64,000 nucleotides of DNA from a bacterium (GCA_021811315.1 JAJZPF010000001.1:206153-270152), one strand, 5' to 3'; positions 31,995 to 54,088 are shown, numbered from the stretch's first letter. The notes: generated by a model from the sequence alone, not told the origin. Program-made: numbers and translations.

Positions 31995-32969
31995 TTAAAA
32001 TTTCTTCTTCAGCGTTATGCGCTGGGTGCTGCCCAAAGCGCCTTCAGGCGACATCGCATAATCCAGGTCGGCATTCATCAGTTTGATGCCCGCACCCGCG
32101 CTGAATGCGCCTGCTGCGCTTTGGCCCGAGCCACCATTGACACCGCCGCGCAGGCTAAGTCCAGTCATTGTTTCCGGCCCGCCGAACAAGGCGTATTCCG
32201 TGCCCAGGCTATAGGTTGTATTCTTGTCATACACATAACGCCTGGCGTCGAAATTCAGCATAAAACCCGCAACCGGCATAAACATTATACCGGCGCTCAC
32301 GCTTAAAGGCAACTGGTCTCTCTGGGAAATGTATTTAATGCCGGGGCCAAGGTTCTGGACAGCGACACCTACTGATACGGGTAGACCTCTTAAACCGCGT
32401 TTCACACCTATATCCACGGCGTAGCCTGTTCCCTTAACGCCTGCAATGGAACTTTCTATATATTTTACAGACCCGCCCACACTATATCTGCCGTATTGCT
32501 TAGCCAAGGCAAGACTTGCCGCCTGGTCGTAGGCTGAATAGCCGCCGCTTCTGGACCTGGAGGCCGTGCGGCCTTCCATACTGCCGCTGGATAGCCTTGC
32601 GAAACTTAAACCCATTTTCCACTTTGATGACCCCGGCAGTGCGAAACCCGCACCTATAAAGTCATGCACTGTGCCTAAATACAAGGCGCTATGGCTTAAA
32701 GCGGCCTCACCTTTACTCATTGAGGAAAGTCCGGCAGGATTATACGCTATGGCGCTTATTCCCATTGCGGACGCCGCCCCGGCCGAAGACATGGCCCCCG
32801 CCCTTGCGTCCGTGTCTATACGCAGAAACTCGGCGCCGCTTTCAAGCGCCTCACTTATTTTTACAGACGGGGTAAAAACAAACACAAGCGCCGCGCCCAA
32901 TACCCATGGCCTTGAAAGTAAATAGACAATGCGGTTCATCATGTCATGAGGGTTAGTTTTATCTTTCAT
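31995..32969 (-). CDS. PorV/PorQ-family outer-membrane beta-barrel
   Basis: 324-aa ORF. FLRIDTDARAGAMSSAGAA..AIAYNPAGL N-terminal signature, alternating beta-strand pattern, LPLSVSAGI, GTEYAL, DLDYAM near the C-terminus. The Shine-Dalgarno overlaps the stop of the giant gene. Confidence 0.65.
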   Translation of the reverse strand: MKDKTNPHDMMNRIVYLLSRPWVLGAALVFVFTPSVKISEALESGAEFLRIDTDARAGAMSSAGAASAMGISAIAYNPAGLSSMSKGEAALSHSALYLGTVHDFIGAGFALPGSSKWKMGLSFARLSSGSMEGRTASRSRSGGYSAYDQAASLALAKQYGRYSVGGSVKYIESSIAGVKGTGYAVDIGVKRGLRGLPVSVGVAVQNLGPGIKYISQRDQLPLSVSAGIMFMPVAGFMLNFDARRYVYDKNTTYSLGTEYALFGGPETMTGLSLRGGVNGGSGQSAAGAFSAGAGIKLMNADLDYAMSPEGALGSTQRITLKKKF

Positions 32970-32977
32970 AAGCCCTC

Positions 32978-35900
32978 CTATCTTACCACCGCGAACTTTC
33001 CGGTCTTCTTAAGTTTCTGGCCGGCTTTCTGCGCTTCTATGTAGTAAAGGTAGACCCCGGTCGGGATATGGCCGCGCCAGGTGTATTCATAGGCGTAGCT
33101 TAAGCCATTGCCGTCGTCCAGTTCGGCTGGCATCCCCGTAAGCGTGTATTCGTGCGCCGCCCTGCCGCTTACGGTGTAGATGGTTATTTTCACGCTGTCG
33201 GCTAGGCCGGTTTCGATATGAAAGGTGGGGGCCTCACTGCCCTTGGCGGGGTTAGGGAAGACATAGACCTCGCCGAGCCTGAACTCCGGGTCGGCCGCGG
33301 AGGCGAATACCCCGCCCTCGTCGGAAACACGGGTTCTCTTTACCTGTTCTGTGACCGAGACCGCGTAGCTGGCCGCCACCACCTGGTATTGAGAGAAATG
33401 CGGCACATCCGCTTTTACAAGCTTTGCCGAAGCATCCCGGCGTGAAGGCAGAAGTTCCCATGCGCCCGAAGTTTCGTTCCAGTAGGCGATAGCGAGTTTC
33501 TCGGGGGATTTCTCCGCTACATCATAAGGCAGGCTTATAGTCAGCGGCTTATCGAATTTGGAGCCTTCCGGGCCGAATTCATAAGCGGAACCGCGCCTGC
33601 CGAGGCGTCCAGCCTTAGCGGCACGCTCTTTACGCGCTTCGTTTTCTGTTCTGTCGCCATCGATGCTTAGGACATACAGCTCGCAGTCGTCTTTTACCGA
33701 CCCGGCCGGGGCGTCGAAAGCTGCGTGCTTGTGGTGCTCGCCATGGCCGCCGCCGCGGCGGCTTATCTTCTGGGGCCTTATTGTTCTTATTGTGCCCTCG
33801 GCGCTGAATTTTTTTCCATCGGCCAGCACGCCTGAGACAGTGATCTTAACCACGGCGTTCTCCGGCAGCAGCGGCATTACCTTTTCCCTGTCGAATTTAA
33901 CCGTGATCGAGCCGCACTCGATGGAATATTTTTTATGTTCTTTTTCTTTCTTCTCCTGAGCAAAGAGCGGATTCGCCAGCGGCTGGCCGTTGATGGCGCT
34001 AATATTTATAGTTTCGCGCTTGAAGCAGCCGGCAGATGCGGGGTCGATACGCAGCTCCGCGGTTATCGACTCACCTTCGCTCTTCAGGTTCAGGACTTCA
34101 GGTTTAACGTCGAGGCTTATCGAATACGCTGGCGCTGGGCTCGCCCGCAGCAACGCGTACAGCGAGGTATGGTAGATCTCGCCTTCCAAAGTAGCCGAGC
34201 CGTCCGCATTGAAAGTAACCTGCTGATTATAGATGGAGGCGCTGGTCCAGGCCACCGTTACCGTGTCGAAGTAATAGATGGCCACCGTGTTTGTGTCTAT
34301 CTCCGCAGGGTCGAACGTGAACTTAAGTTTTGCCGGTTCCGTGAATACTACGCCGCTCGGCAGCAGTTCATAAAACGCGCTCGACACCGGCGAAAGTCCT
34401 GCATCGGTCATAGCGGCGAACACAGGGGTCGTAGAAGATATAGTTTCTGTAGAAAGAGTGGTAACTGTCAGGTCGGCTCCCGGAGCCGTTACTATTAGAA
34501 GACCGTCATCGCTCGGAACGGGCACGGGGGTAACTTCAAGCAGCGCTTCGGCGCTGAAGATGCCGTAGCGGACCTTGACCCTGGTCTTACCGTATCCCGA
34601 CCCAGTGGCTAGTCCGCCATCGGGGCTGATGGCTGCGACCGTGTCATACGCAACCGACCAGGCCAGCCCGTCGGACGCGTCCAAAGCGCGCTTTGAGGCG
34701 TTGCTATAATTGGCGGAGACAGTGAACTGCTGTGTTTTCCCCTCTTCTACGGTAGCGGTGGAGGGAGCTATCACTATGGAGGTCAATGCGGGGCTTAATG
34801 CGCCTCTGAACCCGGAATCATATAATTCAGCCGACAAGCTGGACGAGCTGCCGTCGGAACCGCCGCAGACCAGCACTTTACCTCCGGGCAAGAGCAGGGC
34901 CGCGGCGTGATAACGCCTGCTCTGGCTCATAGAAGCCGTAATATAGAACGCTTCATCTGCTGGGTCGTAGAGCTCCGCCGAGGAAAGCGTGCTGCCGCTC
35001 GCGTATTCGTCGCCGCCGGCCACAAGCACATTCCCGTCGGGCAGCGAGACCGCGACATGACCGACCAATCTGCCGGCATTCGTGGAGCCCACGTCGGTAA
35101 AGGTCCCGGTAACCGGATCGTATACTTCGGCCACGAAAACCGCCACGCTGCCGTCATAACCGCCGATCACCAGCACTTTGCCGTCCGCCAGCGATACGGT
35201 TTCCACGAACTTACGCGCCCTTTTCATCTGCCCTGTCGTCGGCGCAAATGAGTTGTTAAGAGGATCGTATATCTCGGCCGTTGCCAGGGGTACGCCGTTC
35301 CCGAATCCGCCCACTATCAGCACTTTGCCGTCCGGCAATAATTCGGCGGAATGCAGATATCTGGGCGACGTCATCTCACCTGCCGGCGAGAACGTGCCTG
35401 CGACCGGATCGTACAATTCGGCCGAGGAAACCGGTCCGTTCTCGTCGGACCCGCCGGCTATCAACACCCTGCCGTCGGGCAATAGGGTGGAAGTGTGCGC
35501 ATACCTGCCGACCGCCATAGGGCCGGTTTTCGAGAAACCGAACGTGGATGGGTCGTACAGTTCGGCCAAGGTTATTACCGCGCTGCCGTTTATTCCCCCG
35601 GTCAGCAGCACCCGGCCGTCAGATAGCAGGGTGGCGGCATGGGTTCTGCCCCTGGGCTCGCTCATTGAACCGGTGACGGTAAATACCCCTGTTAGCGGGT
35701 TATATAACTCGGCCGAGGAAAGGATTCCGGAATCGCCGTTGCCGCCGGCGATCAGCGCCATCCCGTCAGGCAGCAAAGTAGCGGTATGAAGATGCCTGGG
35801 TTCCGTCATTGGACCTGTGGCAATAAATCTAGGCACGAACGGCAGAGCAGCGACTGTCAGCGCCGCGTCCGCGCTAAGGCTGCCGGAACTGACCGTGATA

Positions 35901-38900
35901 CGGGCCTGGCCAAAAGACACCCCCGTGGCCAGGCCGTCGGTGGTGATGTAAGCAACCGTCGCGGGGACAACGGACCAGGTCAGCCCGTCCGACACGCCTA
36001 GAACGCGGTTCGTGCCGTCGCTGAAATAACCCGTGGCCGCGTATTGCCGCGTGCCGCCGGGCTCTACGGTGGCGCTGGAGGGGTTTACAGTCATGGATTC
36101 AAGCAATGACGGAGAAGCAAAGCCGAAATTGTACAGTTCAGCCGAGGAACTGGAGGAACTGCCGTCGGAACCGCCGCAGACCAGAACTTTGCCGCCGGGC
36201 AGCAGCAGCGCCGCTGCGTGATAACGCCGGCTCTGGTTCATCGGAACCGTTAATGAAAATGTTTTGGAGGCCGGGTCGTAGACCTCAGCCGAAGAAATGG
36301 TGCCGCCGTCCGCGTACTCGTTGCCGCCGGCTACCAGCACTTCGCCGTTGGGCAGCAGAGTGGTGGTATGGCCGACCGATCTTCCCACATTGGTAAGGCC
36401 TGAGTCGGTAAAGGTCCCGGTAACCGGATCGTATACTTCGGATACCAAAACCGTCGCGCTGCCGTCATAACCGCCGATCACCAGCACTTTGCCGTCCGCC
36501 AATGATGCGGTTTCGACGAACTTACGCGCTCTTTTCATCTGCCCTGTCGTCGGTGCAAATGAGTTATTAAGAGGATCGTATATCTCGGCCGTTGCCAGGG
36601 GTACGCCGTTCCCGAATCCGCCTACTATCAGCACTTTGCCGTCCGGCAATAATTCGGCGGAATGCAGATATCTGGGCGACGTCATCTTACCTGCCGGAGA
36701 GAAAGTGTCTGCGACAGGATCGTACAATTCGGCCGAGGAAACCGGCCCGTTCTCGTCGGACCCGCCGGCTATCAAAACCCTGCCGTCTGACAATAAGGTA
36801 GCGGTGTGCGCGTACCTTCCAGTCGCCAGCGGGCCCGTTACCGAGAACTTGCCCGAGCCCGGGTTGTACAGCTCGGCCAGTGTGATCACAGCGCTGTTAT
36901 TTATACCGCCGGTCAGCAGCACCCGGCCGTCAGACAGCAGGGTGGCGGCATGGGTTCTGCCCCTGGGCTCGCTCATTGAACCGGTGACGGTAAATACCCC
37001 TGTTAGCGGGTTATATAACTCGGCCGAGGAAAGAATTCCCGAACTGCCGTTCCCACCGGCTATAAGCACGGTGCCGTCGGACAGCATGGTGGCGGTATGG
37101 AGATGCCTTGGTTCGGTCATGTCACCCGTGGAGGAAAACGAAGCCGGGACAGGAGTATAAATAAATAAACCTGCGGAAGCGCTAAAGCCGCCCAGACTGA
37201 CCCTGACCTGCGTTCTGCCATATCCGAGGCCGGTTATCAGGCCGTTCTGGTCAGCGGCTGCTACCGTGCTGTGGTCAACAGACCAGAGTGCCCCGTCGGA
37301 GGCGATAATAGTGCGTGTAGTTCCGTCGCTGAAGCTGCCCTGAGCCGTGAATTGCTGGCTGCTTCCGGGTTCCAGGAACACGAGAGGCGGGTTAAGCGTG
37401 AGAGAGGTCAGTTGGACAGGAGGCTTCACTTCAATATATATAGCTTTTCCAGTTTCCGCATTCCTGACATTGTCCACGCTTTGGTAATAAATAGTATAGC
37501 CGCCGACGGGGAGGTTGAACGGACCGGAGTAAAAACTGTTCTCACAGCTTCCCATCCCGTTTATGCCGCCGCTGGCCCATTCACTATACTCGCAGTCCTC
37601 CGGAGAGACGCCCACCAGGAAATAGGTAGTGGCCAGCCCGCTCATTACGCCGTTGGAAATGGTATCCGTCGCCACGAGCGTTATAAAGTCCGCAGTGGTA
37701 GCGTAGACGGTGGCGCTAGGGGCGATAGGGAGTCCGTTCAACTCAAGAGCGGACTCGGGCGGGGTGCTGTCTACGCGCAATTGGGCGAAATTCGTCTCGC
37801 CGAGATTGTCTATTTTGTCTATGGCGTAGTAGTGTATGGCGTGAGCCCCCTCGCCAAGCGGGAAAGGCCCGTCGTAAATCTTCGGCGCTGGTTCCGCGTC
37901 CAACTGATAATATGTGCTGGCCGCGCCGGCCAGGGCGAAAGTGTTGGAAGACCTGTCCTCGGCGGTCAGCTCCACCGGCGAAGAGGAGCTTATATAAACA
38001 GCGCCGTCTTTCTCAAAGGTGTTTTCCACTTTAAAGATCACCACCGGGCCGGCATTGTCGTACATGCTTAGAGGGGCCACCAGCGAGAAAAGCGAGTTGC
38101 TGCCGGAAAGCCTGGTCACGCAGTGGTCCGCGTCGGCCAGGTCCAGGGCGTATTCTTCGTCGGCGGTGCCTACAAGTCTTAGGTCTTCTTGCGTCCCGTT
38201 GTCCAGATAATGCCTGATCCCCAGCTGAACTGCTTCCGATGGAAGCATGCCGCAGGTTTTTATCTTTATGCCGGAATACAAGGCGCCGTCATATTTTATA
38301 TGCAGGGAGCGGTTTAAGCCGGGCGGATAGACGACATAATTTTTGGGCGCAGCCGGCGAGGGGACGCTTTCCATCGTCAGCTTGCTCCCCGGACCCGCGT
38401 TAAGGTTGTAAAAAGTGATAATGGAACCCTCGAAGCCGAATTTGACCCCGGCGGTTGTCGCGGAGGAGTTCCTGACAAAAGCCTCCGCCGGCCCGTTCGC
38501 GAGGGACGCTATGCTCTGGCCGGCAAGCGAAACAGTGCAGGCGTCGTTACAGATATTTTCCCCGTTTATTATATTGCAGATCTTCGGGGTTACGCTGACG
38601 GAGACGTTGCCGTGCAGCCATATCCCGGGTGTTGCAACCACCTGCGGAGTCAGGGAGGCCGAGGTAAGCGCGGCCGAAATTGAAACGCCATCAGGCAGGC
38701 CGTCCTCTATGGGAACGGTGAAAGTGTTCCGCGCCGAAGTTATTGTTATGGCGCAGGGCTCTCCGCTGGCCGTCACTTCCGAAATATAATTGGCCACCAG
38801 GTTGGTCTGCCCCGGAGCCACTTCTCCGCCTGCGGCGGTTTTTATGAACTCAAAGATGGGCTGGGGACTCCCGTTCCGGGCTTTGTCCTGGGCGCTGAAA

Positions 38901-41485
38901 ACGTAATAGCTGCCCGACTCTACGTTCAATTCCGGGGAGGTGAAAGGAATAAGTTCCCTGCTTCCCGGCATCGGCGCAAAATCATGATGTAAGCCGCCGC
39001 CATCCAGATGAAAAAAGTCCATGCCGCTGTTCGTGTCCTGCACCGTGCCGTGGATAGTATAGGTCCCGGCGGCCACATCCATGTCTACCCCGCCGATATT
39101 AAGCCGCGGACTTTCGGGGTCCACGCGGAACCACATGGTGGTGAAGTTACCTTTATTATCCCACACGGTCTGCTCATACAGCCCGTCTTCCAGGTTCAGC
39201 TCTATTTCCTGATTGTAGACATGAGGGGCATAAGAGAATTTGCGTACTACCGTATTGTCAGCGACGTTGCGGATGGTTATCTCTTTTATCCCGGAGCCGA
39301 TATCCCTGTAACTGAACCGGACCCGGTTCCAGGCTAAATCTATAGGCTCGGCTTCGGTGCCGCAGGTATCTCCGCCGCAGCCGTAGGCGAGGATGTGGTT
39401 CCTGTCCTCGTAGCCTATCGACGGCGGGAAGCCGGCCTCCACGCGCAGCGAGTGGAACTTGTCAGAGCCGCCGCCGGCGGGCATATAGCCGCTGGCGTCG
39501 CGGGTGAGCTCACGGGCGGGGTCTATATAGGATTTATCGGGGTCGATCTTAAAAAGCTCGTTGGACGTGCCCGCGATGTCCGCGCCCCTGATCTCCAGGG
39601 GAAGCATCGCATCCTGGAGATAGTAATTACCTATGGCCAAAGTGGAGACCTGCACCGAAGTGAACGGCGTAAAAGCATTATTGATGTTCACCAGCGAGGC
39701 TTCGAACATTGGCTCGCTGAAAGTGGTAATGACGGTGTACTCGCCGGGGACGATGGGCTCTTCCACGCTGGGCGCGTAGGACCGCAACATGGATTTATCG
39801 TCGAGCTCCCAAGAGCGTTTATAAAAGGTTGTGGTGCTTTGTTTCACTTCCACCTGCTTGACATAGGGGCGGAAGTTGTCGAGGGTAACCATCGTGGGAG
39901 CGCTGATAAAGCGTTCGGATTCTTCCCTATCCATGCTTTCTGCCACAGCAACCAGCCCGTACCGACCGTCTGGATAGGCCGCGTCCTCGTTGAGATTAGC
40001 TAGTACAGGCGGAATTTCGCCGGCGAAATCCTTGCGTATCCTCGTATTCCATTGGTTAAAAACAAATTCGGTTCTGGGTGTGGTGCTCAGGCTCCCGAGC
40101 GGGTTAAGCCCGGTTCTTGTGCCGTCGCTCCTGTAATCGTTTCCAGTATTGTTTATAAAAGGAGGGAAGGCATTATCCTCCTCGAATAAGGGGGAACCAC
40201 CCACAGTCCCGCCGTAATCGAATTCGGCGCGGAACGGATCAGCGGGGTCGGGAAGTTGGTCGGCGAATGTGGTTTGCACATCCCTATTGCCGTTTATGAG
40301 ATACGTATTAGCAGCCGCATCCGCTGGCGTCAAATTTGGGAGGACAGCTTCGGGGATAGCCATAAGCCTGAGCCGGTCCAGTTCATAGGAATGATAGGTT
40401 TTCCAATTCACTACTTCCGGCCCTGCCGGCCCTTCCACCACTTCCGGACGCCAGCGTATGCTGGCCTTCACACGCTCATTGTTATGGTCCATGGTGTGGT
40501 AAAGAATGCTTTCCTCCGTCGGAGTGGATACCTCACCTGAGAACTGGCTATGGCCGCGCGCGAGGTATTGCACTACATTATTCCAGCCGTCATTGAATAA
40601 AGGATTGCCTGGTTGTTTCCCGTTATAAAGCGTCAGGTCAGGGGAACTTACCTGCAAGTGGAGGTGAGCGTTATTGGTGCCGGATTTGCCCAGCGGAGCA
40701 ATTATTTCACCTGGACCCACCGCGGTTTGCGGGACAATATAGCCGGCCCTGGATTCGGCAATTTTATTGGGGCCGGCAGTTATATTGTTTCCATCATAAC
40801 CATCATCACCCTGTTTCAGGGTATTAAGAACTCCATCTGTGCCGCAGGAGACCACGATCGTGTTTTCATCTGGGGTCTGCGTTCCGACCGGCACAATCTG
40901 GTCATCTTTGCCTGCCTCGCTTTCCGGTACTTTGATTTGGAGATCAGTATGTATTCCGTCTATCCCCAAAGCCTGGACAATTCGCCCGGTTTGATTCAAG
41001 CCGGAGTAAAGAAGAACTACTCCCCTATTTACTATGCCCTCGGTATAAATTCTTTTATAGCTGCGTATTGGTGCGGTTTGTCCGACTCCGACAAAATTCC
41101 CGGATTCAATATCCTTGTGAGGGAAAATATGCAAATAAGCAAAATTTCTTCCGCCGCCGTAGTTGACTCCTATCCACTTAATCCCACTCCCGGTTTTGCC
41201 TATTCCAAAAATAGTGCCAAAACCAGCAGCGGTTACGGGGTAGTTTATATCTAAATCTCCAGACAAGTCTTTTGCATTAAGGTCTATGCCTTTATGAAAA
41301 AATGTGCCCACTGTGATTGGGTTGCCGTCAGCGTCAACCCCTAAATCCCTGGGACCATAGGCGGAATCAACACGGTATTCAATCCCGTAAGGGTCTATCG
41401 GCCAAGGCAAGACTTGCTGGGCTGAGACATCCACCAAAGGAAAAACAATAAAGCCAAGTGAAACAAGACACGACTTCAGGTTCAT
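32978..41485 (-). CDS. Giant secreted multidomain protein: signal peptide, split M23-like metallopeptidase head, 3 Big_2-like Ig domains, two 7-bladed Kelch propellers, T9SS-type C-terminal sorting domain
   Basis: 2,835-aa uninterrupted ORF. FHKGIDL and NAHLHLQ (M23 HxGxD / HxH). Big_2-like segments (e.g. LTLNPPLVFLEPGSSQQFTAQGSFSDG). 14 Kelch-type blades (PRxxHTATLLxDGxVLxxGG). C-terminus VYVFPNPAKG...ITIYTVSGR...GVYLYYIEA...KFAVVR. Confidence 0.85.
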   Translation of the reverse strand: MNLKSCLVSLGFIVFPLVDVSAQQVLPWPIDPYGIEYRVDSAYGPRDLGVDADGNPITVGTFFHKGIDLNAKDLSGDLDINYPVTAAGFGTIFGIGKTGSGIKWIGVNYGGGRNFAYLHIFPHKDIESGNFVGVGQTAPIRSYKRIYTEGIVNRGVVLLYSGLNQTGRIVQALGIDGIHTDLQIKVPESEAGKDDQIVPVGTQTPDENTIVVSCGTDGVLNTLKQGDDGYDGNNITAGPNKIAESRAGYIVPQTAVGPGEIIAPLGKSGTNNAHLHLQVSSPDLTLYNGKQPGNPLFNDGWNNVVQYLARGHSQFSGEVSTPTEESILYHTMDHNNERVKASIRWRPEVVEGPAGPEVVNWKTYHSYELDRLRLMAIPEAVLPNLTPADAAANTYLINGNRDVQTTFADQLPDPADPFRAEFDYGGTVGGSPLFEEDNAFPPFINNTGNDYRSDGTRTGLNPLGSLSTTPRTEFVFNQWNTRIRKDFAGEIPPVLANLNEDAAYPDGRYGLVAVAESMDREESERFISAPTMVTLDNFRPYVKQVEVKQSTTTFYKRSWELDDKSMLRSYAPSVEEPIVPGEYTVITTFSEPMFEASLVNINNAFTPFTSVQVSTLAIGNYYLQDAMLPLEIRGADIAGTSNELFKIDPDKSYIDPARELTRDASGYMPAGGGSDKFHSLRVEAGFPPSIGYEDRNHILAYGCGGDTCGTEAEPIDLAWNRVRFSYRDIGSGIKEITIRNVADNTVVRKFSYAPHVYNQEIELNLEDGLYEQTVWDNKGNFTTMWFRVDPESPRLNIGGVDMDVAAGTYTIHGTVQDTNSGMDFFHLDGGGLHHDFAPMPGSRELIPFTSPELNVESGSYYVFSAQDKARNGSPQPIFEFIKTAAGGEVAPGQTNLVANYISEVTASGEPCAITITSARNTFTVPIEDGLPDGVSISAALTSASLTPQVVATPGIWLHGNVSVSVTPKICNIINGENICNDACTVSLAGQSIASLANGPAEAFVRNSSATTAGVKFGFEGSIITFYNLNAGPGSKLTMESVPSPAAPKNYVVYPPGLNRSLHIKYDGALYSGIKIKTCGMLPSEAVQLGIRHYLDNGTQEDLRLVGTADEEYALDLADADHCVTRLSGSNSLFSLVAPLSMYDNAGPVVIFKVENTFEKDGAVYISSSSPVELTAEDRSSNTFALAGAASTYYQLDAEPAPKIYDGPFPLGEGAHAIHYYAIDKIDNLGETNFAQLRVDSTPPESALELNGLPIAPSATVYATTADFITLVATDTISNGVMSGLATTYFLVGVSPEDCEYSEWASGGINGMGSCENSFYSGPFNLPVGGYTIYYQSVDNVRNAETGKAIYIEVKPPVQLTSLTLNPPLVFLEPGSSQQFTAQGSFSDGTTRTIIASDGALWSVDHSTVAAADQNGLITGLGYGRTQVRVSLGGFSASAGLFIYTPVPASFSSTGDMTEPRHLHTATMLSDGTVLIAGGNGSSGILSSAELYNPLTGVFTVTGSMSEPRGRTHAATLLSDGRVLLTGGINNSAVITLAELYNPGSGKFSVTGPLATGRYAHTATLLSDGRVLIAGGSDENGPVSSAELYDPVADTFSPAGKMTSPRYLHSAELLPDGKVLIVGGFGNGVPLATAEIYDPLNNSFAPTTGQMKRARKFVETASLADGKVLVIGGYDGSATVLVSEVYDPVTGTFTDSGLTNVGRSVGHTTTLLPNGEVLVAGGNEYADGGTISSAEVYDPASKTFSLTVPMNQSRRYHAAALLLPGGKVLVCGGSDGSSSSSSAELYNFGFASPSLLESMTVNPSSATVEPGGTRQYAATGYFSDGTNRVLGVSDGLTWSVVPATVAYITTDGLATGVSFGQARITVSSGSLSADAALTVAALPFVPRFIATGPMTEPRHLHTATLLPDGMALIAGGNGDSGILSSAELYNPLTGVFTVTGSMSEPRGRTHAATLLSDGRVLLTGGINGSAVITLAELYDPSTFGFSKTGPMAVGRYAHTSTLLPDGRVLIAGGSDENGPVSSAELYDPVAGTFSPAGEMTSPRYLHSAELLPDGKVLIVGGFGNGVPLATAEIYDPLNNSFAPTTGQMKRARKFVETVSLADGKVLVIGGYDGSVAVFVAEVYDPVTGTFTDVGSTNAGRLVGHVAVSLPDGNVLVAGGDEYASGSTLSSAELYDPADEAFYITASMSQSRRYHAAALLLPGGKVLVCGGSDGSSSSLSAELYDSGFRGALSPALTSIVIAPSTATVEEGKTQQFTVSANYSNASKRALDASDGLAWSVAYDTVAAISPDGGLATGSGYGKTRVKVRYGIFSAEALLEVTPVPVPSDDGLLIVTAPGADLTVTTLSTETISSTTPVFAAMTDAGLSPVSSAFYELLPSGVVFTEPAKLKFTFDPAEIDTNTVAIYYFDTVTVAWTSASIYNQQVTFNADGSATLEGEIYHTSLYALLRASPAPAYSISLDVKPEVLNLKSEGESITAELRIDPASAGCFKRETINISAINGQPLANPLFAQEKKEKEHKKYSIECGSITVKFDREKVMPLLPENAVVKITVSGVLADGKKFSAEGTIRTIRPQKISRRGGGHGEHHKHAAFDAPAGSVKDDCELYVLSIDGDRTENEARKERAAKAGRLGRRGSAYEFGPEGSKFDKPLTISLPYDVAEKSPEKLAIAYWNETSGAWELLPSRRDASAKLVKADVPHFSQYQVVAASYAVSVTEQVKRTRVSDEGGVFASAADPEFRLGEVYVFPNPAKGSEAPTFHIETGLADSVKITIYTVSGRAAHEYTLTGMPAELDDGNGLSYAYEYTWRGHIPTGVYLYYIEAQKAGQKLKKTGKFAVVR
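34530..37425 (-). repeat. In-frame tandem duplication inside the giant gene: about 2.2 copies of a 1,311-nt (437-codon) Big_2 + 7-blade Kelch unit
   Basis: Sequence at 34861 and at 36172 aligns with a 1,311-nt offset. The plus-strand shadow ORFs 35178..35789 and 36489..37160 are near-identical. A third Big_2 copy lies at about 34530-34790. Confidence 0.85.
39181..39885. repeat. ~0.7-kb block near-identical to 42622..43326 (3' end of the head-only paralog)
   Basis: Direct nucleotide alignment with a constant offset of 3,441 nt. Only scattered mismatches, plus one ~45-nt divergent patch (39246-39290). Confidence 0.85.
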
Positions 41486-41496
41486 AACCTTTCCTT

Positions 41497-42402
41497 TTAA
41501 AACTGTAGCTTCTCTGTCTTAACCCGTCTTGTCTTGATATCCCAAAAATGAATAATTGTAATCTCTCGTTTGTCTTCAGAAATATTCATTTTTTCTATAT
41601 TTTTAAATGCCGAATTAGGAATAGTGAGTTTGTTTAGCTCAAATTTGTTCTCTTTTGTATCAAACACGCTTATCGCGGCCTTGCCGCCGGGAATTAAATC
41701 ATCTACCAGTAAGATATATCTGTCGTTATCTGAAAAAAAAGTTGGGCCAAGAAAGGAAACTTCAGCTAAAATTTCTTTTCTTAGATTTAAAATTTTTAGA
41801 CCTTCACTTTCTCCAACGGTCACAGCAAAAAATTGTCCAGTATTAGAAACCAGAGGGTTCCAGCCTTCCGTATTGTTTAGCGTTAATATTTCTTTCCCTT
41901 CCGCGTTATACACTCTGGCAATAGAAGTGTTTTCAACCGGGTCCTCCGCATATTCACTGTCGGATTTAATGTCCGCGTATTCCACAAAATCTAGGCGCGA
42001 CTCTTCTAGCACTAGGTATTTTTTATTATCACTAATCCGTGCAGAATTGCTTTCCTGCCTTACATGCTCAATATCCCTGCCGCTATGCTTGCGGAGCGAT
42101 TCAATGGCCTCTGCCACGGCTGTACTTATATTCACCTTTAACCCGGAGCGGTCGAAAACCTTCTCTTTGCCTATATGTGTTCGGATTTCTGTTTCCCCCA
42201 CACCAAGTTCTTTTACTTTCTTCCCACTCTTATCATGGAAGCGGATAACTTTGTGGTTATTCTCAAAGACTTCTTCAATTCGTTGGTTGGGGCTTGCCAC
42301 CTGCGGGATATCCTTGGCTTTAGTGGGCGTCGGCTCCGTATCTTTTGCCAGCAACATCGTGGCTAAAGCAGAAATCATCAATAAAGCTATAAAGCTTTTC
42401 AT
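41497..42402 (-). CDS. Small secreted protein, copy 1 (beta-propeller-like; unknown function), first gene of the giant-protein operon
   Basis: 301-aa ORF. Signal peptide MKSFIALLMISALATMLLA. Conserved NQRIEEVFENNHK..RFHDK. Blade-like ISDNKKYLVLE, VSNTGQFFAVT, FSDNDRYILLV. AGGAGAG Shine-Dalgarno. Paralog of 44901..45812. Confidence 0.75.
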   Translation of the reverse strand: MKSFIALLMISALATMLLAKDTEPTPTKAKDIPQVASPNQRIEEVFENNHKVIRFHDKSGKKVKELGVGETEIRTHIGKEKVFDRSGLKVNISTAVAEAIESLRKHSGRDIEHVRQESNSARISDNKKYLVLEESRLDFVEYADIKSDSEYAEDPVENTSIARVYNAEGKEILTLNNTEGWNPLVSNTGQFFAVTVGESEGLKILNLRKEILAEVSFLGPTFFSDNDRYILLVDDLIPGGKAAISVFDTKENKFELNKLTIPNSAFKNIEKMNISEDKREITIIHFWDIKTRRVKTEKLQF

Positions 42403-42518
42403 AAGTCTCTCCTGTGCGTTTTGCTTCAGTGCGGTACGGTGGCGGTGTGGTTCTCAGCGGTGTTGTGTAAACCCCAATTGCCTGCCCATGTTATAGCAGA
42501 CAAAACTCCGAGATTCAA
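42403..42518 (-). promoter_or_regulatory. Sigma70-like promoter (TTGAAT-17-TATAAC) plus ~80-nt C/A-rich 5' UTR, copy 1
   Basis: Minus strand: -35 at 42518..42513 and -10 at 42495..42490. The leader CAGGCAATTGGGGTTTACACAACACCGCTGAGAACCACACCGCCACCGTACCGCACTGAAGCAAAACGCACAGGAGAGACTT precedes the ATG. It is duplicated at 45813..45929. Confidence 0.55.
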
Positions 42519-42613
42519 TGCTTTGGCACTCAATTTATATTTAATTTATAATAATCAATTTATGGGGCAGTAACTTCTTCATGCGCGCAACCTGTCGCTT
42601 CTCTGGTTAGCAC

Positions 42614-44884
42614 TCATAATAAGCCGTCCTCCAGGTTCAGCTCTATTTCCTGATTGTAGACATGAGGGGCATAAGAGAATTTGCGTTCCGGGGTTGCCGA
42701 CGTGCTTATGCGGATGCTTATCTCCCGTATCCCGGAGCCGATATCGGCGTAGCTGAACCGGACCCGGTTCCAGGCTAAAGCGATAGGCTCGGCTTCGGTG
42801 CCGCAGGTATCTCCGCCGCAGCCGTGGGCGAGGATGTGATTCCTGTCCTCGTAGCCTATCGACGGCGGGAAGCCGGCCTCTACATGCAGCGAGTGGAACT
42901 TGTCCGAGCCGCCGCCGGCGGGCATATAGCCGCTGGCGCCGCGGGTGAGCTCCAGGGCGGGGTCTATGTAGGATTTATCGGGGTCGATCTTTAAAAGCTC
43001 GTTGGCCGTGCCCGCGATGTCCATGCCCCTGATCTCCAAGGGAAGCATCGCGTCCTGGAGATAGTAATTACCTATGGCCAGAGTGGAGACCTGCACCGAA
43101 GTGAACGGCGTAAAAGCATTATTGATGTTCACCAGCGAGGCTTCGAACATGGGCTCGCTGAAAGTGGTAATGACGGTGTACTCGCCGGGGACGATGGGCT
43201 CTTCCACGCTGGGTGCGTAGGACCGCAACATGGATTTATCGTCGAGCTCCCAAGAGCGTTTATAAAAGGTTGTGGTGCTTTGTTTCACTTCCACCTGCTT
43301 GACGTAGGGGCGGAAGTTGTCGATGGTTATCATCTTAGGGTAGCTGATAAAACGCTCGGATACTTCCCGATCGACGCTTTCCGCCACTGCGATCAGGCCA
43401 TATTGGCCATCCGGATAGGCTGCGTCTTCATTGCGGTACGCCAAGCCGGTAAAACTTTTATTTATTCCTGTGTTCCATTGGTTGAAAACAAAATCGGTTA
43501 TCGGAGTGACCGCAAGGTCCCCTTGGGGGTTAAGGCCAGTTGTTGCTCCGTAGCTTCTGAAACCGGCCCCGGTATTACCAATAAAAGGCGGGAAGGCTAT
43601 GTCGTTGTACGCACCACCGTAATTGAATTCAGCACGAAAAGTGTCACTAGACACAGGAAGTTGCAGCGCTGTTGTTATGGGGCTTCTATTCCCATTTATC
43701 AGGTAGGTATTATCCGCAATAAGGCTTGCAAAATCCAATGTCTCTTGCGCTACTTTGTCTGGAATGACGTATATTTTCACCCTGTCCAATTCATATGGAT
43801 GATAGATTTGCCAGTCAGCTCCTACCGGACGCCAGCGTATACTAGCCGTCACACGTTCATTGTTGTGGTCATCAGTGTGGTAGAGTGTGCTGTTATCCGT
43901 GGGAACAGAAATTCCGCCGGAAAACTGACTATAATCATGCACAAGATACTGAATTACATTATCCATCCCGTCGTTGTAATCGGCGCCTGCAGATGGATCA
44001 TTCGCAAGTTTCTCATCTGCGTGGCTTATCTGCAAGTGTAGATGCGAGTTGTTTGCGCCTGATTTCCCCAATGGCGCTATTATTTCCCCAGAAATAATTG
44101 TGGTTCTAGGCACAATATAACCAGCTTTTGAGTCAGCAATTTTATTTATCCCGGCGTTTATGCATGTTTTATCGACAGAATACTCATCATCCCCCTGAGG
44201 AAGCGTGTCTAAAACCCCATCATTACCAGCACAAACGACCGAAGTATCTGAAGCAGGGGTTGGGCTATATTGTGGAATCGGCTGGGTATCAAGCGCTCCA
44301 GGAACTGCTATTTCCAGATTATTATGCATGGGGCTTATTCCCAACGCTTTAACTATCCGCCCGGTATTTTTGCCGTTTAAAACCGAACCGGAATAAAAAA
44401 GAATAATTCCCATATTGTTGTCATCAATATTATTGGCATTTTTAGTGATAATCCTGCGGTAGCTTCTTATTTGATTGTTCTGGGCAATCTGATTATTTAC
44501 CACATCACTGATGTCACCGACGACAACAGCGCTATTGTTGGGGAAAATATGCAGATATGCAAGTGTGCGATTATTTCCATAATCCACTCCGATCCATTCT
44601 ATGCCATCACTGGCACGACCTATCCCAAAAATAGTGCCATCGCCTGGGGCTATTATTGGCTGATTAAGATCCGCATCTCCGGTGTTCCCACCAGTGTTTT
44701 GTTCATTCAAGTCAAGGCCTTTATGAAAAAAAGTGCCTCTGACAACATTTCTGGGACCGTAAGCAGATTCCACTCGGTAAGGGTATCCCTCGGGGTCGGA
44801 GGGCCAGGGCAATAATTGGGCGTAGGCCGAAATTGCTGAACAGGCAATTACGCCGACAATAAAAAAATACCGTTTAAATCTCAT
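42614..44884 (-). CDS. Head-only paralog of the giant protein (signal peptide + split M23-like domain + conserved middle region), truncated at the duplication junction
   Basis: 756-aa intact ORF. FHKGLDL and NSHLHLQ motifs. The last ~235 aa are nearly identical to giant-protein residues encoded at 39181-39885. It ends ...NLEDGLL* where the giant continues ...NLEDGLYEQTVW. No Big_2, Kelch or CTD. Confidence 0.75.
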   Translation of the reverse strand: MRFKRYFFIVGVIACSAISAYAQLLPWPSDPEGYPYRVESAYGPRNVVRGTFFHKGLDLNEQNTGGNTGDADLNQPIIAPGDGTIFGIGRASDGIEWIGVDYGNNRTLAYLHIFPNNSAVVVGDISDVVNNQIAQNNQIRSYRRIITKNANNIDDNNMGIILFYSGSVLNGKNTGRIVKALGISPMHNNLEIAVPGALDTQPIPQYSPTPASDTSVVCAGNDGVLDTLPQGDDEYSVDKTCINAGINKIADSKAGYIVPRTTIISGEIIAPLGKSGANNSHLHLQISHADEKLANDPSAGADYNDGMDNVIQYLVHDYSQFSGGISVPTDNSTLYHTDDHNNERVTASIRWRPVGADWQIYHPYELDRVKIYVIPDKVAQETLDFASLIADNTYLINGNRSPITTALQLPVSSDTFRAEFNYGGAYNDIAFPPFIGNTGAGFRSYGATTGLNPQGDLAVTPITDFVFNQWNTGINKSFTGLAYRNEDAAYPDGQYGLIAVAESVDREVSERFISYPKMITIDNFRPYVKQVEVKQSTTTFYKRSWELDDKSMLRSYAPSVEEPIVPGEYTVITTFSEPMFEASLVNINNAFTPFTSVQVSTLAIGNYYLQDAMLPLEIRGMDIAGTANELLKIDPDKSYIDPALELTRGASGYMPAGGGSDKFHSLHVEAGFPPSIGYEDRNHILAHGCGGDTCGTEAEPIALAWNRVRFSYADIGSGIREISIRISTSATPERKFSYAPHVYNQEIELNLEDGLL
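42622..43326. repeat. ~0.7-kb block near-identical to 39181..39885
   Basis: See the partner feature. The offset of 3,441 nt equals 1,147 codons, so the two copies are in the same reading frame. Confidence 0.85.
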
Positions 44885-44900
44885 ACACCTCTATCCCTTT

Positions 44901-45812
44901 TCAAAAACGCACACGATCTATTTCGTTCCCTTTTGCCACCCTGACGTGAAACGGTTCGTGCGAAATTACTATTTCACGTTTATCTTCTAAAATCTCTATT
45001 TTTTTGATATTTTTAAATACCAAATTAGAAACAACTAGTTTCCTTAGTTCAAATTTATCGTTTTGTGTATCAAACACGCTGATTGAAGATTTATCTGAAC
45101 CATAGGTCATCTCTGTGAAGATTATAAATCTCTCTCTTTCTGAAAAAAGCGCTCCCCCCGAAAAATATGGTATTTCAGCTAGTATTTCCTTTTTGCGATT
45201 CATAATCCTTTGTTTTCCATATTCGCCTACTACTACAATGAATATCTGGCCGGTATTAGACACAATCGGTCGCCATCCCTCGTCCTTGCTTAATTCCAAA
45301 ACTTTATTGCCGTCTGAATCGTAAACGGTGGTGACGCAACCTGTTTCAGTGGGGTCTTCCGATCGTTCGCCGTCACTTGCCTCAGCAAAGTCCACAAAAT
45401 CCAGATAACCATCCTCAACAACAACAAACTGTTTGTTGCCGCTAAAAGACACTTCCTTAAGCTCACTGCGATATAATTCCACGTCGCGGCCGGAACTTTT
45501 CCGCATTTCCTCAATTGTTTCAGCTATTTTGGAGCTGATTTTTAGTCCGAAACTTGAGTGATCAAAGATTTTCTCTTTGCTTACACGTATTTTGGTTTCT
45601 TTTGATACAAGGTCTATATCTTTTGTTTTCTTCCCATCCTTGTCATGGAAGCGGAGAAGTTTGTGATTGTTTTCGAAGACTTCCTCAATCCGCTGATTGG
45701 GCTTTGCCGCTTGAGCATCTTCCTTGTCTTTGGCGGCAACTGGCACCGTATCTTTTGCTGACAATAAGGTACCGAAAACGAAAAACGACAATAAAGCTAT
45801 AAGGCTTTTCAT
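44901..45812 (-). CDS. Small secreted protein, copy 2 (paralog of 41497..42402)
   Basis: 303-aa ORF. Signal peptide MKSLIALLSFFVFGTLLSA. Same NQRIEEVFENNHK.LRFHDK motif and blade-like segments. 16-nt gap to the head-only M23 paralog. Confidence 0.75.
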   Translation of the reverse strand: MKSLIALLSFFVFGTLLSAKDTVPVAAKDKEDAQAAKPNQRIEEVFENNHKLLRFHDKDGKKTKDIDLVSKETKIRVSKEKIFDHSSFGLKISSKIAETIEEMRKSSGRDVELYRSELKEVSFSGNKQFVVVEDGYLDFVDFAEASDGERSEDPTETGCVTTVYDSDGNKVLELSKDEGWRPIVSNTGQIFIVVVGEYGKQRIMNRKKEILAEIPYFSGGALFSERERFIIFTEMTYGSDKSSISVFDTQNDKFELRKLVVSNLVFKNIKKIEILEDKREIVISHEPFHVRVAKGNEIDRVRF

Positions 45813-45929
45813 AAAGTCTCCCCTGTGCGTCTTGCTTCAGTGTGGTACGGTGGCGGTGTGGTTCTCAGCGGTGTTGTCTAAACCCAAATTGCCTGCCCAT
45901 GTTATAGCAGACAAAACCCGGGTATTCAA
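45813..45929 (-). promoter_or_regulatory. Sigma70-like promoter (TTGAAT-17-TATAAC) plus conserved C/A-rich 5' UTR, copy 2
   Basis: Minus strand: -35 at 45929..45924 and -10 at 45906..45901. The leader differs from copy 1 at only a handful of positions. Confidence 0.55.
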
Positions 45930-46058
45930 TGCTTTCCGATTTAAGTTATATTTGATTTATGACAGTCGAATCAGAGATTGTAATCCTTTATAAATGCGCG
46001 TAACTTGCCGCATCCCTGGTCAGTCAGCCATAGTAAAGAGTATGGGGCGGGGATTGAT

Positions 46059-46092
46059 AAATGTCAATACCTATTTCATGGTATTGACATTT
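46059..46092 (-). terminator. 13-bp perfect hairpin downstream of the kdsC-operon genes (possible terminator or insulator before the island)
   Basis: aaatgtcaatacc-tatttcat-ggtattgacattt. On the minus strand it is followed by ATCAAT, so only weakly U-rich. Confidence 0.35.
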
Positions 46093-46151
46093 CGGTGCTG
46101 GGATTAATGACGCAGGGATGGAGTGCTTGCGGGCGTGTTTCAGTAGTAGGT

Positions 46152-46610
46152 CTAGGTTTTCTTCTTGGTTGTTTTTGGTTTTTCTTGGGGCCGTTTCAGC
46201 TCCAGTTTAAAAATATCCAATCCGCCCCACGGGCCGTTCTGCAGGTGGAAAACCACCGTAACTTTTTTCCCGGCCGCGTCCCTGAAATCGGCCGACACGG
46301 CCCTCCCGCCGTTTTCCCCCGCCTGCGCCTTGGGTTCGATGGAAGCTAATTCTAGTTTGAATATTTTTTTCGAGGCTTTGTCTTCGATGAGGAAGGCTCC
46401 CTTAAGCTGCATGTCCTTGCGGATATAATCCGTCACGAAGGCCGCCAGGTCCTCGTCGCTCTGCTGGATCAGGGCCAGGTCTTCGTCCTCGTCGCCGTTC
46501 CTGACGGTCTCGGTGGAGGCCGCCGCTTCCGTCAGTCCTTCGTCCTCGAAAGCCGCCGCCGCCGGGCCCGCGAAGCACAGCGCCAGCGCCGCTAAAATAA
46601 AAAATTTCAT
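46152..46610 (-). CDS. Secreted acidic/basic hypothetical protein
   Basis: ATG at 46610 (ATGA overlap with the kdsC stop, GGGGGAAG Shine-Dalgarno). Signal peptide MKFFILAALALCFAGPAAAA. 152 aa. Confidence 0.6.
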   Translation of the reverse strand: MKFFILAALALCFAGPAAAAFEDEGLTEAAASTETVRNGDEDEDLALIQQSDEDLAAFVTDYIRKDMQLKGAFLIEDKASKKIFKLELASIEPKAQAGENGGRAVSADFRDAAGKKVTVVFHLQNGPWGGLDIFKLELKRPQEKPKTTKKKT

Positions 46611-47233
46611 TTCTTCCCCCCGGTTTTTGAAAATCTGACTATTTTCAGCTGGCTTTTTTTTATCTGCGGCCAATGGGCGGTCTCCACATAGTTCATCACC
46701 GTCTTCCAATGCCCCTGGCTCTTAAGGATGAAATCGCAGGCTTCGCGCACCGCGCCCAGGCCGCCTTCTTTTTTCGTCACCAAATGCGAAGCGGCTTTAA
46801 CTTCGTCCAGGGCGTTCGCGGGCGCGCAGGCCAGCCCGGCTTTTTTCAGGACGGGGATATCGGTCCAGTCGTCGCCCATGTAAGCGACGTTCTCGGGCTT
46901 GAGGCCGGTGGCGGCCAGGATCTGCATGAGCGGTTCCAGCTTCGAGAGGAAGCCCTGGTAGGCGTAGCCCATGCCCAGCCCGCGGGCCCGCTCCTCGGTG
47001 CCCGGCGATTCGCGGCCGGTTATCACGCCGGTGGCGACGCCGAACTGGTTTAAAAGCCGCAGGCCGATGCCGTCCAGCGAATGGAAGGCTTTTATCTCGA
47101 CCATTTCGGCGCCTTTGCCGGGGATATAGTACATCTTCCCGTCGGTGAGGACCCCGTCCACGTCCATCAGGAAGATCTTTATCTTTTTCGCGCGCGCGGC
47201 GTTGGTTTTCAGGCTCATAGTTTCATTATCCAT
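46607..47233 (-). CDS. kdsC: 3-deoxy-D-manno-octulosonate 8-phosphate phosphatase (HAD-IIIA)
   Basis: FLMDVDGVLTDG, GVITGRES, YMGDDWTDIPVLKKAGLACAP. An alternative start at 47218 would form an ATGA overlap with the epimerase stop. Confidence 0.85.
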   Translation of the reverse strand: MDNETMSLKTNAARAKKIKIFLMDVDGVLTDGKMYYIPGKGAEMVEIKAFHSLDGIGLRLLNQFGVATGVITGRESPGTEERARGLGMGYAYQGFLSKLEPLMQILAATGLKPENVAYMGDDWTDIPVLKKAGLACAPANALDEVKAASHLVTKKEGGLGAVREACDFILKSQGHWKTVMNYVETAHWPQIKKSQLKIVRFSKTGGKK

Positions 47234-52054: not shown

Positions 52055-53182
52055 GTGAAATTCCTGAAGAAGCTCGGTTTCCCCCTCCTTTTCGCCTCTA
52101 TTATCGGGTTTAAGCTCGCGGCCAGTCACGGAGGCATGGCTTTGTACTACGTTTCAGGCGGGCTTATGATAGCCGGCGGCCTGCTTATCGTCGCTTCCGT
52201 CTTCATCCGGCCGGACGAAGAAGGGCCCGCGCCGGACCGCCCTCCCGCCCCCGCCGCGGAGAGCGGCTTATCCTTTCCCCTCTCCGCCGGCATCGACGTC
52301 CCCAACCCGGTCCCGAACCGGGTTTATATCGCCGGCGGGCTGGCCAGCGCGGCCGGCGCCCTGGTTTTCTTTACCGGGCCGGACGGGGTGAACCGGACCA
52401 GCGTGATATCTTTCGCTCTTATTCCCGGCGGAATACTTTATATCCTCGGCGCGACCTTTTTTTACGGCGACCCGGCCGACCGGCGAAATATCCTGCGCGG
52501 CGCGGCGGCGCTTATCTCCTTCCTTATGATATTCGGCGGCATAATGACTTTCGTTTTTATAGCAGCCGGAGCTTTTGACCAGGGGCGGGGCCGCCCTTAC
52601 GCCGTCCTGGCCGTTTTCTCCATACTTTTGGGCATGTGGGGCGCTTATTACGGCATGAAATACCAGCAGAGCGCCGAGGGCCGGGCGATCGGCCGCAAGC
52701 TGGGCTTTGCCGACGCCGACGGCGCCGTTTCTTCCGACGGAGCCTATGATTCCAAGGGCGTAATGAACGGGGTGGAAACGCTTTTTAACGTCGAGCCTCA
52801 GAGCGGCGGAAGGAATTCCCCCCCGTTTTTCACTCTTGAGGTTCTCTGCCGCTGCTCTAATACTCGCGGCGTGGCGCTTTCCGTCAGGCCCGAGGGCTTT
52901 TTGGGCAAACTCGCCATCTCTTTTAATTCCCTGCCGCGCCTGCCCGGCGTGCCGTACTGGGATTTTTACGAAGTGCGCTGCGACCGCCCGGACTTCGCGC
53001 AGAATATTCTCGCCGAAGCGAGGCACGGGGATAATATTTTTAACGATAAAGCCGGCTTCCTGGAGATGTCCCTGGAAGGAAGCGCTTTTAAATTTACTTT
53101 CCGCAATGAAGGCTATGTCGATACAGCTTATGTTTATCGCGTCTTGCAGGAAACATCCAAGTTAGCTTCCCTCTTCCATTAA
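52055..53182 (+). CDS. Polytopic membrane protein with a C-terminal soluble domain distantly resembling 58688.. and 59354..
   Basis: 375-aa ORF with a GTG start. 6 hydrophobic helices. No recognised domain. Confidence 0.55.
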   Translation: MKFLKKLGFPLLFASIIGFKLAASHGGMALYYVSGGLMIAGGLLIVASVFIRPDEEGPAPDRPPAPAAESGLSFPLSAGIDVPNPVPNRVYIAGGLASAAGALVFFTGPDGVNRTSVISFALIPGGILYILGATFFYGDPADRRNILRGAAALISFLMIFGGIMTFVFIAAGAFDQGRGRPYAVLAVFSILLGMWGAYYGMKYQQSAEGRAIGRKLGFADADGAVSSDGAYDSKGVMNGVETLFNVEPQSGGRNSPPFFTLEVLCRCSNTRGVALSVRPEGFLGKLAISFNSLPRLPGVPYWDFYEVRCDRPDFAQNILAEARHGDNIFNDKAGFLEMSLEGSAFKFTFRNEGYVDTAYVYRVLQETSKLASLFH

Positions 53183-53230
53183 AGTTTTCCCGCCCTTTAA
53201 TTCTATTCCTATATTTTATTCGGAATTTAA

Positions 53231-53276
53231 ATTTATTAAAGAGGGTATCGACATCTTTAATAAATTGTGTTATACT
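53231..53276 (+). promoter_or_regulatory. Promoter (TCGACA-17-TGtTATACT) bracketed by an 11-bp inverted repeat (candidate operator)
   Basis: ATTTATTAAAG (53231-53241) and CTTTAATAAAT (53255-53265) flank the -35. The extended -10 lies at 53268-53276. Confidence 0.45.
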
Positions 53277-53326
53277 TTGAATATCGCAATTAATATATTG
53301 ATAAGATTAAGGAAGTAATTAATAAT

Positions 53327-53695: not shown

Positions 53696-53704
53696 GGAGA
53701 AAAT

Positions 53705-54073: not shown

Positions 54074-54088
54074 GCGCATAGGGGGGAT

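Follow-up and report, generated by a model that had tools for sequence, protein, structure and literature searches.

A mosaic tandem duplication of a partner gene and an M23-like head in an uncultured Elusimicrobia bacterium, probably composed of exchangeable cassettes with flanks homogenised by recombination

The subject of this report is a tandem duplication in a window of 64,000 nucleotides (nt) taken from the bacterial assembly GCA_021811315.1 (JAJZPF010000001.1:206153-270152); all positions are counted from the first letter of the window. The host is an uncultured member of Elusimicrobia, the closest named relatives being Elusimicrobiales metagenome-assembled genomes. According to open reading frame (ORF) calling, all genes of interest are carried by the minus strand. 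The duplication is a direct repeat of 3,441 nt on this strand, detected by a repeat finder and by a MAFFT profile of both units. Each unit contains a promoter with leader, a small gene (the partner) and the first ~768 codons of a gene for a protein of 2,835 amino acids (aa). Unit B extends from ~46036 to 42623 and unit A from 42622 to 39183. The divergence between the units is mosaic: the promoter with leader at one end and a 701-nt segment at the other (the block) are nearly identical, whereas the partner and the M23-like N-terminal part of the large protein (the head) keep only about half of their residues. It is likely that partner and head form an exchangeable cassette, that two such cassettes stand in the tandem duplication and that their flanks were homogenised by recombination. 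Related loci are designated below by L numbers. The features of the locus, in order of transcription, are:

Upstream of unit B, minus strand: 152-aa gene, the first in transcription order
45813-46036, minus strand: non-coding upstream part of unit B, with distal intergenic DNA, promoter-like element and ~90-nt leader
44901-45812, minus strand: partner gene B (303 aa), its N-terminus being hydrophobic and signal-peptide-like; GC content at third codon positions (GC3) 0.39
42614-44884, minus strand: head-B gene (756 aa), with signal peptide, M23-like peptidase head and block copy B
42624-43324, minus strand: block copy B, 701 nt, near-identical to 39183-39883; GC3 0.75 against 0.43 in the adjoining head B
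42618-42626, minus strand: junction of the tandem duplication, located by reading the sequence and by three-way alignment with L007
42403-42622, minus strand: non-coding upstream part of unit A, with a diverged distal intergenic copy, promoter-like element and leader
41497-42402, minus strand: partner gene A (301 aa), of the same family as partner B; GC3 0.41
32978-41485, minus strand: large gene A (2,835 aa), with signal peptide, M23-like head A (aa 1-533) and block (aa 534-768)
39183-39883, minus strand: block copy A (the homology arm in the full-length gene), its 5' edge being both the recombination breakpoint and a step in base composition
39246-39267, minus strand: mismatch patch of 22 nt, with its counterpart at 42687-42708
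31995-32969, minus strand: downstream gene (324 aa) in a conserved position, encoding a predicted outer-membrane beta-barrel

After the block, the product of large gene A continues with beta-rich and OmpL47-type domains, two Big_2 and Kelch propeller units and a C-terminal domain. The upstream DNA of unit B (45813-46036) aligns to its unit A copy (42403-42622) and harbors the promoter-like element TTGAAT-N17-TGCTATAAC (written out, TTGAAT-N17-TATAAC). This element is not called by a consensus promoter scan because of its last base C. The scan does call TTGACA-N17-CATACT at 46067-46039 (minus strand), immediately outside the duplicated unit, and this site is conserved in L007; given its position, unit B may have two promoters and unit A one. 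The promoter-like hexamers are retained in L002, L003, L005 and L007, and in the relatives only these hexamers and the last ~40 nt of the leader, i.e. the region of the ribosome-binding site (RBS), are conserved. An Rfam scan of 32000-47000 (E <= 1) gave no match of the leader to any known RNA element. The upstream gene B is complete, since it possesses the conserved promoter-like element, leader, RBS, signal peptide and full 756-aa ORF.

The two block copies align without gaps at an offset of 3,441, with 49 mismatches in 701 nt (93.0% identity). An earlier note on this DNA had placed the near-identical segments at 42622-43326 and 39181-39885; the observation holds, and the borders can be refined to 42624-43324 and 39183-39883. 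A patch of ~45 nt at 42687-42731, also described there, is indeed present, but its core comprises only 22 nt (39246-39267, equivalent to 42687-42708), and the rest is a few neighbouring mismatches. The core accounts for 17 of the 49 mismatches, identity elsewhere in the block being 95.3%. The residues concerned are NVADNTVV versus ISTSATPE, and this loop varies in every relative too; a conversion gap, compensating indels or selection are candidate causes of the patch. The 5' 300 nt of the block are 97.7% identical versus 93.4% for the 3' 379 nt (Fisher p=0.01), and this inequality of the two halves suggests more than one conversion event. At the other end of the unit, the promoter and leader are identical at 113 of 124 nt (91%). 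The leader proper is identical at 84 of 89 nt (94%) and the promoter-like element is 87% identical, so the near-identity previously claimed for this region is borne out at 91-94%; the distal intergenic part of the unit reaches only 69%. Between these flanks the heads are 52% and the partners 49% identical at the aa level, in agreement with the earlier estimate of roughly one half. Substitutions per synonymous (dS) and nonsynonymous (dN) site between the units, estimated by the Nei-Gojobori method, are:

Head: dS ~3.0 (saturated), dN 0.35 (0.354)
Partner: dS ~2.0, dN 0.42
Block, whole: dS 0.157, dN 0.052
Block, first half: dS 0.08, dN 0.019
Block, second half: dS 0.24, dN 0.086

The divergence of the non-coding parts (K) is 0.06 for the leader and 0.40 for the distal intergenic DNA. 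Synonymous differences affect 245 of 333 sites in the head versus 23 of 162 block sites (Fisher p=1e-37). A maximum chi-square scan sets a single breakpoint at position 39882, in codon 535 of large gene A, and none of 200 permutations reached the observed value. The mosaic is far beyond chance. Uniform decay after a single duplication, which the earlier note had judged inadequate, fails to account for synonymous divergence that differs more than 10-fold between the cassette (dS ~2-3) and the flanks (0.16). The block does not contain the many synonymous differences that, according to the same note, would have spoken for selection on its protein (dS 0.157). Diversifying selection on the head and the small protein, put forward there as a possible cause, finds no support: dN/dS is ~0.12 for the head and ~0.2 for the partner, with saturated dS giving this test little power. 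The heads are best regarded as old rather than fast-evolving.

A single-copy control is provided by L007, a Logan contig that carries, in syntenic arrangement, an orthologue of the 152-aa gene together with a single partner and a single large gene. Large gene A diverges from its L007 counterpart evenly (dS 1.14 in the head, 0.94 in the block and 0.8-2.0 in the body, with ~70% aa identity throughout). Slow evolution is therefore not a property of the block itself, and the mosaic cannot be put down to purifying selection. The dS of the block between A and B (0.157) has to be compared with 0.94 to L007 and 0.72 to L005, and the leader K of 0.06 with 0.64 to L007. Recombination or gene conversion of the flanks was the right conclusion of the earlier note, since in L007 the block diverges as fast as the head.

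Identity matrices were calculated for the head, the partner and the block, and the trees of head and partner conflict with that of the block. Head A forms a group with L005A and L007 at 67-79% identity (79% for A-L005A, 67% for A-L007), and head B is 50-56% identical to every head. The partners fall into {A, L005A, L014, L007} versus {B, L011}, partner B being 64% identical to that of L011. In the block A and B share 92% identity versus 72% for A-L005up and 69% for A-L007. The segmental contrast in dS, its values in the flanks below orthologue divergence and this phylogenetic incongruence together are what concerted evolution by gene conversion produces, and they are observed here. A further mosaic is found within large gene A: the internal 1,311-nt tandem repeat of Big_2 and Kelch units (34800-35800 versus 36111-37111) has stretches of 97-100% identity beside stretches of 65-75%, which suggests intragenic gene conversion in the same gene.

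Base composition follows the same borders. The partners have a GC3 of 0.39-0.41 and the heads one of 0.43-0.51, versus 0.73-0.75 in the block, 0.65-0.68 in the body, 0.71-0.78 in the neighbouring genes and ~0.72 in the genome. The step coincides exactly with the head/block boundary, where GC3 along large gene A rises from ~0.57 to ~0.70-0.78. A like contrast (0.41-0.49 versus 0.70) is present in L005 (29-7089). With a dS of at least 2, against a K of only 0.40 in the duplicated non-coding DNA, the cassettes predate the duplication.

The junction links the block end (…GAGGACGGC, equivalent to codon 768 in large gene A) to the start of the upstream intergenic DNA at the microhomology TTAyTATG. 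The intergenic DNA found here is a second, diverged copy (69% identical) of the upstream intergenic DNA. Because the block end is joined to this copy, the head-B ORF terminates with 'LEDGLL*' only 2 codons beyond the end of the duplicated unit. All relatives continue beyond the position where the head-B protein stops. In the one part of the structure model of aa 1-800 that could be read, the full-length protein goes on with two further beta-strands of the sandwich at the block end (aa ~715-790, predicted local distance difference test score (pLDDT) of 45-79 per 10-residue bin).

A word-indexed search of 5.8 billion proteins returned seven partner clusters and one other head only. The partner family is rare, with 35 cluster representatives per 1.84 billion proteins in an exhaustive profile search. 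Some of its members are ~690-730 aa long (L006 698-2827; P0015, P0020, P0026, P0027), the partner domain being C-terminal and the N-terminal ~400 residues uncharacterised. L005 contains at 29-4653 an unrelated 304-aa gene (no similarity to the partner family, hhalign probability 1.8%) and then a gene of 1,237 aa, the M23 head of which is compact and canonical (Pfam E=1.3e-12). This compact head is joined to the homologous block and a part of the body at …YPDGPY…TIDNFRPYVKQVEVKQ…, and downstream of the 1,237-aa gene lie an A-type partner and head, interrupted by an IS630-like element. The element, a two-ORF IS630-like transposase (HTH_33 and others with DDE_3), interrupts homologous giant genes at L005 7109-8169 and L004 1687-2747; in L005 it cuts the A-type head at ~residue 447. 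In L009 and L010 a 618-aa gene composed of another M23 head and the block ends after the block and is followed by partner and head; a 326-aa gene of L009 matches the partner family weakly (probability 23%, E=9e-4). The end of a block-type gene lies upstream of partner and head in L002. One partner gene is followed by one full-length gene in L003, and in L006 a single partner is accompanied by a single large gene, which is cut off by the contig end. Thus, at least three head types occur on homologous blocks at the joint YPDGxY...DN(F/Y)RPYV: the long M23 type (A, B), the compact M23 type (L005) and the 618-aa type (L009/L010). The identities of head and partner co-vary across the loci, and the distance between the two genes is always 11-16 nt. 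Partner and head travel as one unit, and the arrangements in the relatives point to cassette exchange on an evolutionary time scale.

The heads are presumably M23-like peptidoglycan peptidases. Heads A and B match PF01551 with 23.5 and 24.8 bits (E=2.6e-5 for head B), which does not reach the gathering cut-off of 28.7. The metal-binding motifs HxxxD and HxH (H64-D68 and H274-L-H276) do not vary between A, B and P0002, a relative named M23 family metallopeptidase by NCBI, and are kept in all relatives. The heads share these motifs with known M23 (LytM/lysostaphin-type) endopeptidases; unlike in the latter, the motifs are ~210 residues apart owing to a large insertion, and the domain forms the tip of a multi-domain protein of 2,835 aa. 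Profile searches of PDB sequences with head and partner profiles gave nothing significant, and the partner has no match in Pfam, NCBIfam or PDB sequences. The AlphaFold2 model of partner A (pLDDT 80) is all-beta, and its fold matches in PDB are beta-propeller proteins with low template modelling (TM) scores of 0.22-0.39. Judging by linkage and co-variation, the partner may bind the head with which it is paired, be it as inhibitor, chaperone or immunity protein.

The C-terminus of the large protein (aa 2742-2820) matches TIGR04183, the type A sorting domain of the type IX secretion system (T9SS), with 17.3 bits (E=0.0034; cut-off 23). The 324-aa gene probably belongs to one operon with large gene A, and its product is probably an outer-membrane beta-barrel with weak PorV/FadL resemblance (PorV profile of Pfam at E=0.0054, short of the cut-off). 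An L003 gene in a like position (L003 20275-21183, with a sub-threshold FadL/TodX match) encodes a product with 52% identity to it. The PorV-like and C-terminal matches, both sub-threshold, would fit export or surface attachment and give a hint of T9SS-like export in Elusimicrobiales.

A crossover between the blocks was constructed in silico at three positions and yielded a 2,821-aa ORF with head B on body A. The fusion of the alternative head to the body predicted in the earlier note is therefore in frame. That note had also stressed that the offset of 3,441 nt equals exactly 1,147 codons; the arithmetic is correct, but the figure is immaterial, because homologous positions share the codon phase of their own ORFs at any offset and the frame is kept for this reason. 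The same crossover would keep partner B beside the fusion, but it also removes partner A and head A and so is a one-way deletion. A crossover between the leaders would remove cassette B and lead to an L007-like single-copy state. The likeness to orphan-module exchange in polymorphic toxin loci, drawn in the earlier note, is apt: the main and orphan rhs genes of Salmonella are 95% identical over 522 bp, and their recombinants arise and are selected (PMC3967940). Homology blocks likewise drive recombination between the tandem immunity paralogues esaG and tipC of type VII secretion systems (T7SS) (PMC9484751).

We favour, with reasonable confidence, the explanation by exchangeable cassettes. The locus would encode a giant secreted or surface protein whose N-terminal M23-like head is produced alongside a beta-propeller-like partner, co-transcribed with it and bearing a signal peptide. 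Partner and head would act as a cassette bounded on the 5' side by the promoter and leader and on the 3' side by the first body domains, which make up the block and begin with the conserved joint YPDGxY...DNFRPYV. The 3.44-kb tandem duplication with its microhomology junction sets two cassettes in a row. Cassette A, of the clade of the single-copy orthologue, is fused to the full body, and cassette B, of a deeply divergent lineage, lies upstream, ends in a truncated block copy and so encodes the stand-alone 756-aa protein. Since both cassettes predate the duplication and are foreign in composition, at least one of them is inferred to have been imported through the flanks, presumably by homologous recombination in these conserved parts. 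More than one event of gene conversion would since have homogenised the flanks, and RecA-type recombination would be limited to these because the heads are too diverged.

Several observations weigh against this explanation or weaken its parts. Neither a recombinant of head B with the body nor a variant of this strain with a single cassette was found. A collection of 15 billion proteins contains both parents but not the likeliest chimera, although such an exact look-up is weak evidence, as any other difference breaks the match. The related loci number only about a dozen and are mostly on short contigs. Polarisation of the block differences by outgroups shows no asymmetry (7 favour A, 6 favour B and 6 neither); with derived changes in both copies, 7 positions being outgroup-like in A and 6 in B, neither a direction of conversion nor any decay of B can be seen. 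In three high-GC hosts alike the cassettes have a low GC3, which could reflect a constraint on this gene region, not foreign origin. The M23 assignment is based on sub-threshold Pfam scores and motifs; the structure model of head A (aa 1-800), built with three sequences, has a pLDDT of 30 and was not used for fold search. Binding or inhibition of the head by the partner is a conjecture, the fold match of the partner being generic.

Two of the other explanations concern the reality of the pattern itself. The probability that strong purifying selection on the block protein alone produces the block similarity is practically nil. The block does begin with ~60 residues that are strongly conserved, in L005 and L007 as well, as this explanation would have it; the block dS of 0.157 between A and B is nevertheless accompanied by 0.94 versus L007 and 0.72 versus L005, and the aa identity of the block drops to only 35-41% in more distant relatives. 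This candidate is refuted by the comparison of synonymous sites together with the orthologue control. An assembly artefact is unlikely as the source of the tandem arrangement, and its specific form, in which two strain alleles of a single-copy locus were concatenated, has a very low probability. The Logan contigs of SRR13189623 (k=31) break in the leader and at the block start of both cassettes, as in a bubble-like graph; such breaks also fit the expectation for real repeats. Against concatenation, the junction contains the diverged second intergenic copy joined to the block end and has no long k-mer common to either parent. The 756-aa ORF that crosses it is on record in ENA and NCBI on contigs of 208,661 and 281,854 nt. 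Moreover, the longest run identical between A and B is 89 nt, shorter than the assembler k of 141 (ENA record k141_336134, ERZ27237050); as there is no identical run of 141 nt or more, each k-mer in the block is copy-specific.

The remaining two explanations accept the duplication and differ in its history or use. It is somewhat unlikely, though conceivable, that an ancient duplication in place was followed by incidental concerted evolution, without any import of a cassette, the 756-aa protein being a sub-functionalised stand-alone enzyme and the conversion of block and leader a side effect unrelated to exchange. The junction and both intergenic copies do resemble a true tandem duplication of the lineage's own DNA, both ORFs are intact with catalytic motifs retained and dN/dS ~0.12, and stand-alone genes of head and block occur elsewhere. 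However, this history is difficult to reconcile with the non-coding K=0.40 beside cassette dS of at least 2, with cassette GC3 of 0.4-0.5 in a genome of GC3 ~0.72, with the grouping of head A with L005 and L007 to the exclusion of B, and with the single cassette of the syntenic L007 locus; besides, the B protein stops short of the last two strands of its final beta-sandwich domain. Unlikely as well is a head-switch in regular use, i.e. block-block recombination that swaps the head for phase or antigenic variation at the population level, or as an effector switch like orphan Rhs activation. Its geometry and in-frame product are verified, the 701 nt at 93-95% match the Salmonella main/orphan values (522 bp, 95%), both cassette flanks are homogenised, and upstream genes of head and block recur in L002, L005, L009 and L010. 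On the other hand, the crossover deletes cassette A irreversibly, the cassettes number only two, the upstream copy is not silent (promoter-like element, signal peptide, full ORF) and no recombinant was found; from the known behaviour of RecA and mismatch repair, a divergence of 4-7% and a maximum identical run of 89 nt would predict a low rate.

Among known systems, the closest analogue of the presumed cassettes appears to be the orphan-module arrangement of Rhs and contact-dependent growth inhibition (CDI) loci, mirrored to the N-terminus. In both cases a variable enzymatic tip and a tightly linked small gene stand beside a conserved body, and a truncated second copy matches the full gene at ~95% identity over several hundred bp (here 701 nt at 93-95%, with truncation at codon 768). 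Recombination through the common stretch gives a full-length chimera (here as constructed in silico), and different variable modules are found on one conserved region across genomes (here at least three head types). The variable part of Rhs elements is AT-rich relative to the conserved part, which resembles the low-GC3 cassettes described here. There are differences as well. The toxin domain of Rhs and CDI proteins is C-terminal, whereas the variable module of 533 aa is N-terminal here and the conserved part comes after it; the extra copy lies upstream with its own promoter-like element, signal peptide and start codon; and the enzyme gene comes after the small gene. Neither Pfam nor NCBIfam detected Rhs/YD, CdiA or PAAR domains, and there are no features of a type VI secretion system. 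The partner matches no known immunity family, and a toxin/immunity role is a hypothesis.

The tandem T7SS immunity paralogues (PMC9484751) are similar in that blocks of high identity flank diverged segments and recombination of the blocks explains both mosaicism and change in copy number. They differ in forming arrays of many small genes, whereas here there are two copies of a two-gene cassette, one of them fused to an 8.5-kb gene; the change in copy number is seen here between related genomes only, not between strains. Antigenic variation of the Neisseria pilE/pilS, Borrelia vlsE and Anaplasma msp2 type relies on one expression site and many promoterless silent cassettes, conversion replacing the variable part. 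The present locus shares with it a variable segment between conserved sequences and the proximity of donor and recipient copies. Unlike in these systems, both copies look expressible, each unit having a promoter-like element, a leader, an RBS and complete ORFs with signal peptides and so not conforming to a single expression site, and it is the conserved flanks that were converted.

Elsewhere in the window two more stretches of low GC content (27001-28000 and 53001-55000; 0.46-0.50 versus ~0.60) are present. The second contains a DUF2089 pair and a ParA-like gene, and no relation of these stretches to the cassettes was seen.

Exchange of enzyme tips via homology arms is known for C-terminal toxin domains (Rhs, CDI, MafB, T7SS); to our knowledge no case has been described in which the tip is a peptidoglycan hydrolase head at the N-terminus with a partner gene upstream, and none in Elusimicrobia. 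One could go further and suppose an N-terminal mirror of the Rhs/CDI orphan modules: a giant surface protein with an exchangeable M23 lytic head and a cognate beta-propeller immunity protein or inhibitor as partner. Spare cassettes kept upstream would be recombined through the conserved joint onto the body of the giant protein, within genomes and between lineages, so that the antibacterial or predatory specificity of the cells could be changed. This wider picture is tentative and in its entirety improbable. Even without an inhibitor role of the partner, the locus provides a clean and quantifiable case in which concerted evolution is restricted to the regions flanking a cassette and a single-copy orthologue serves for comparison. 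If the partner is the cognate inhibitor, this would be a new effector/immunity architecture with a new immunity-like family of ~35 cluster representatives per 1.84 billion proteins, and it would give a handle on the dealings of an uncultured phylum with neighbouring cells.

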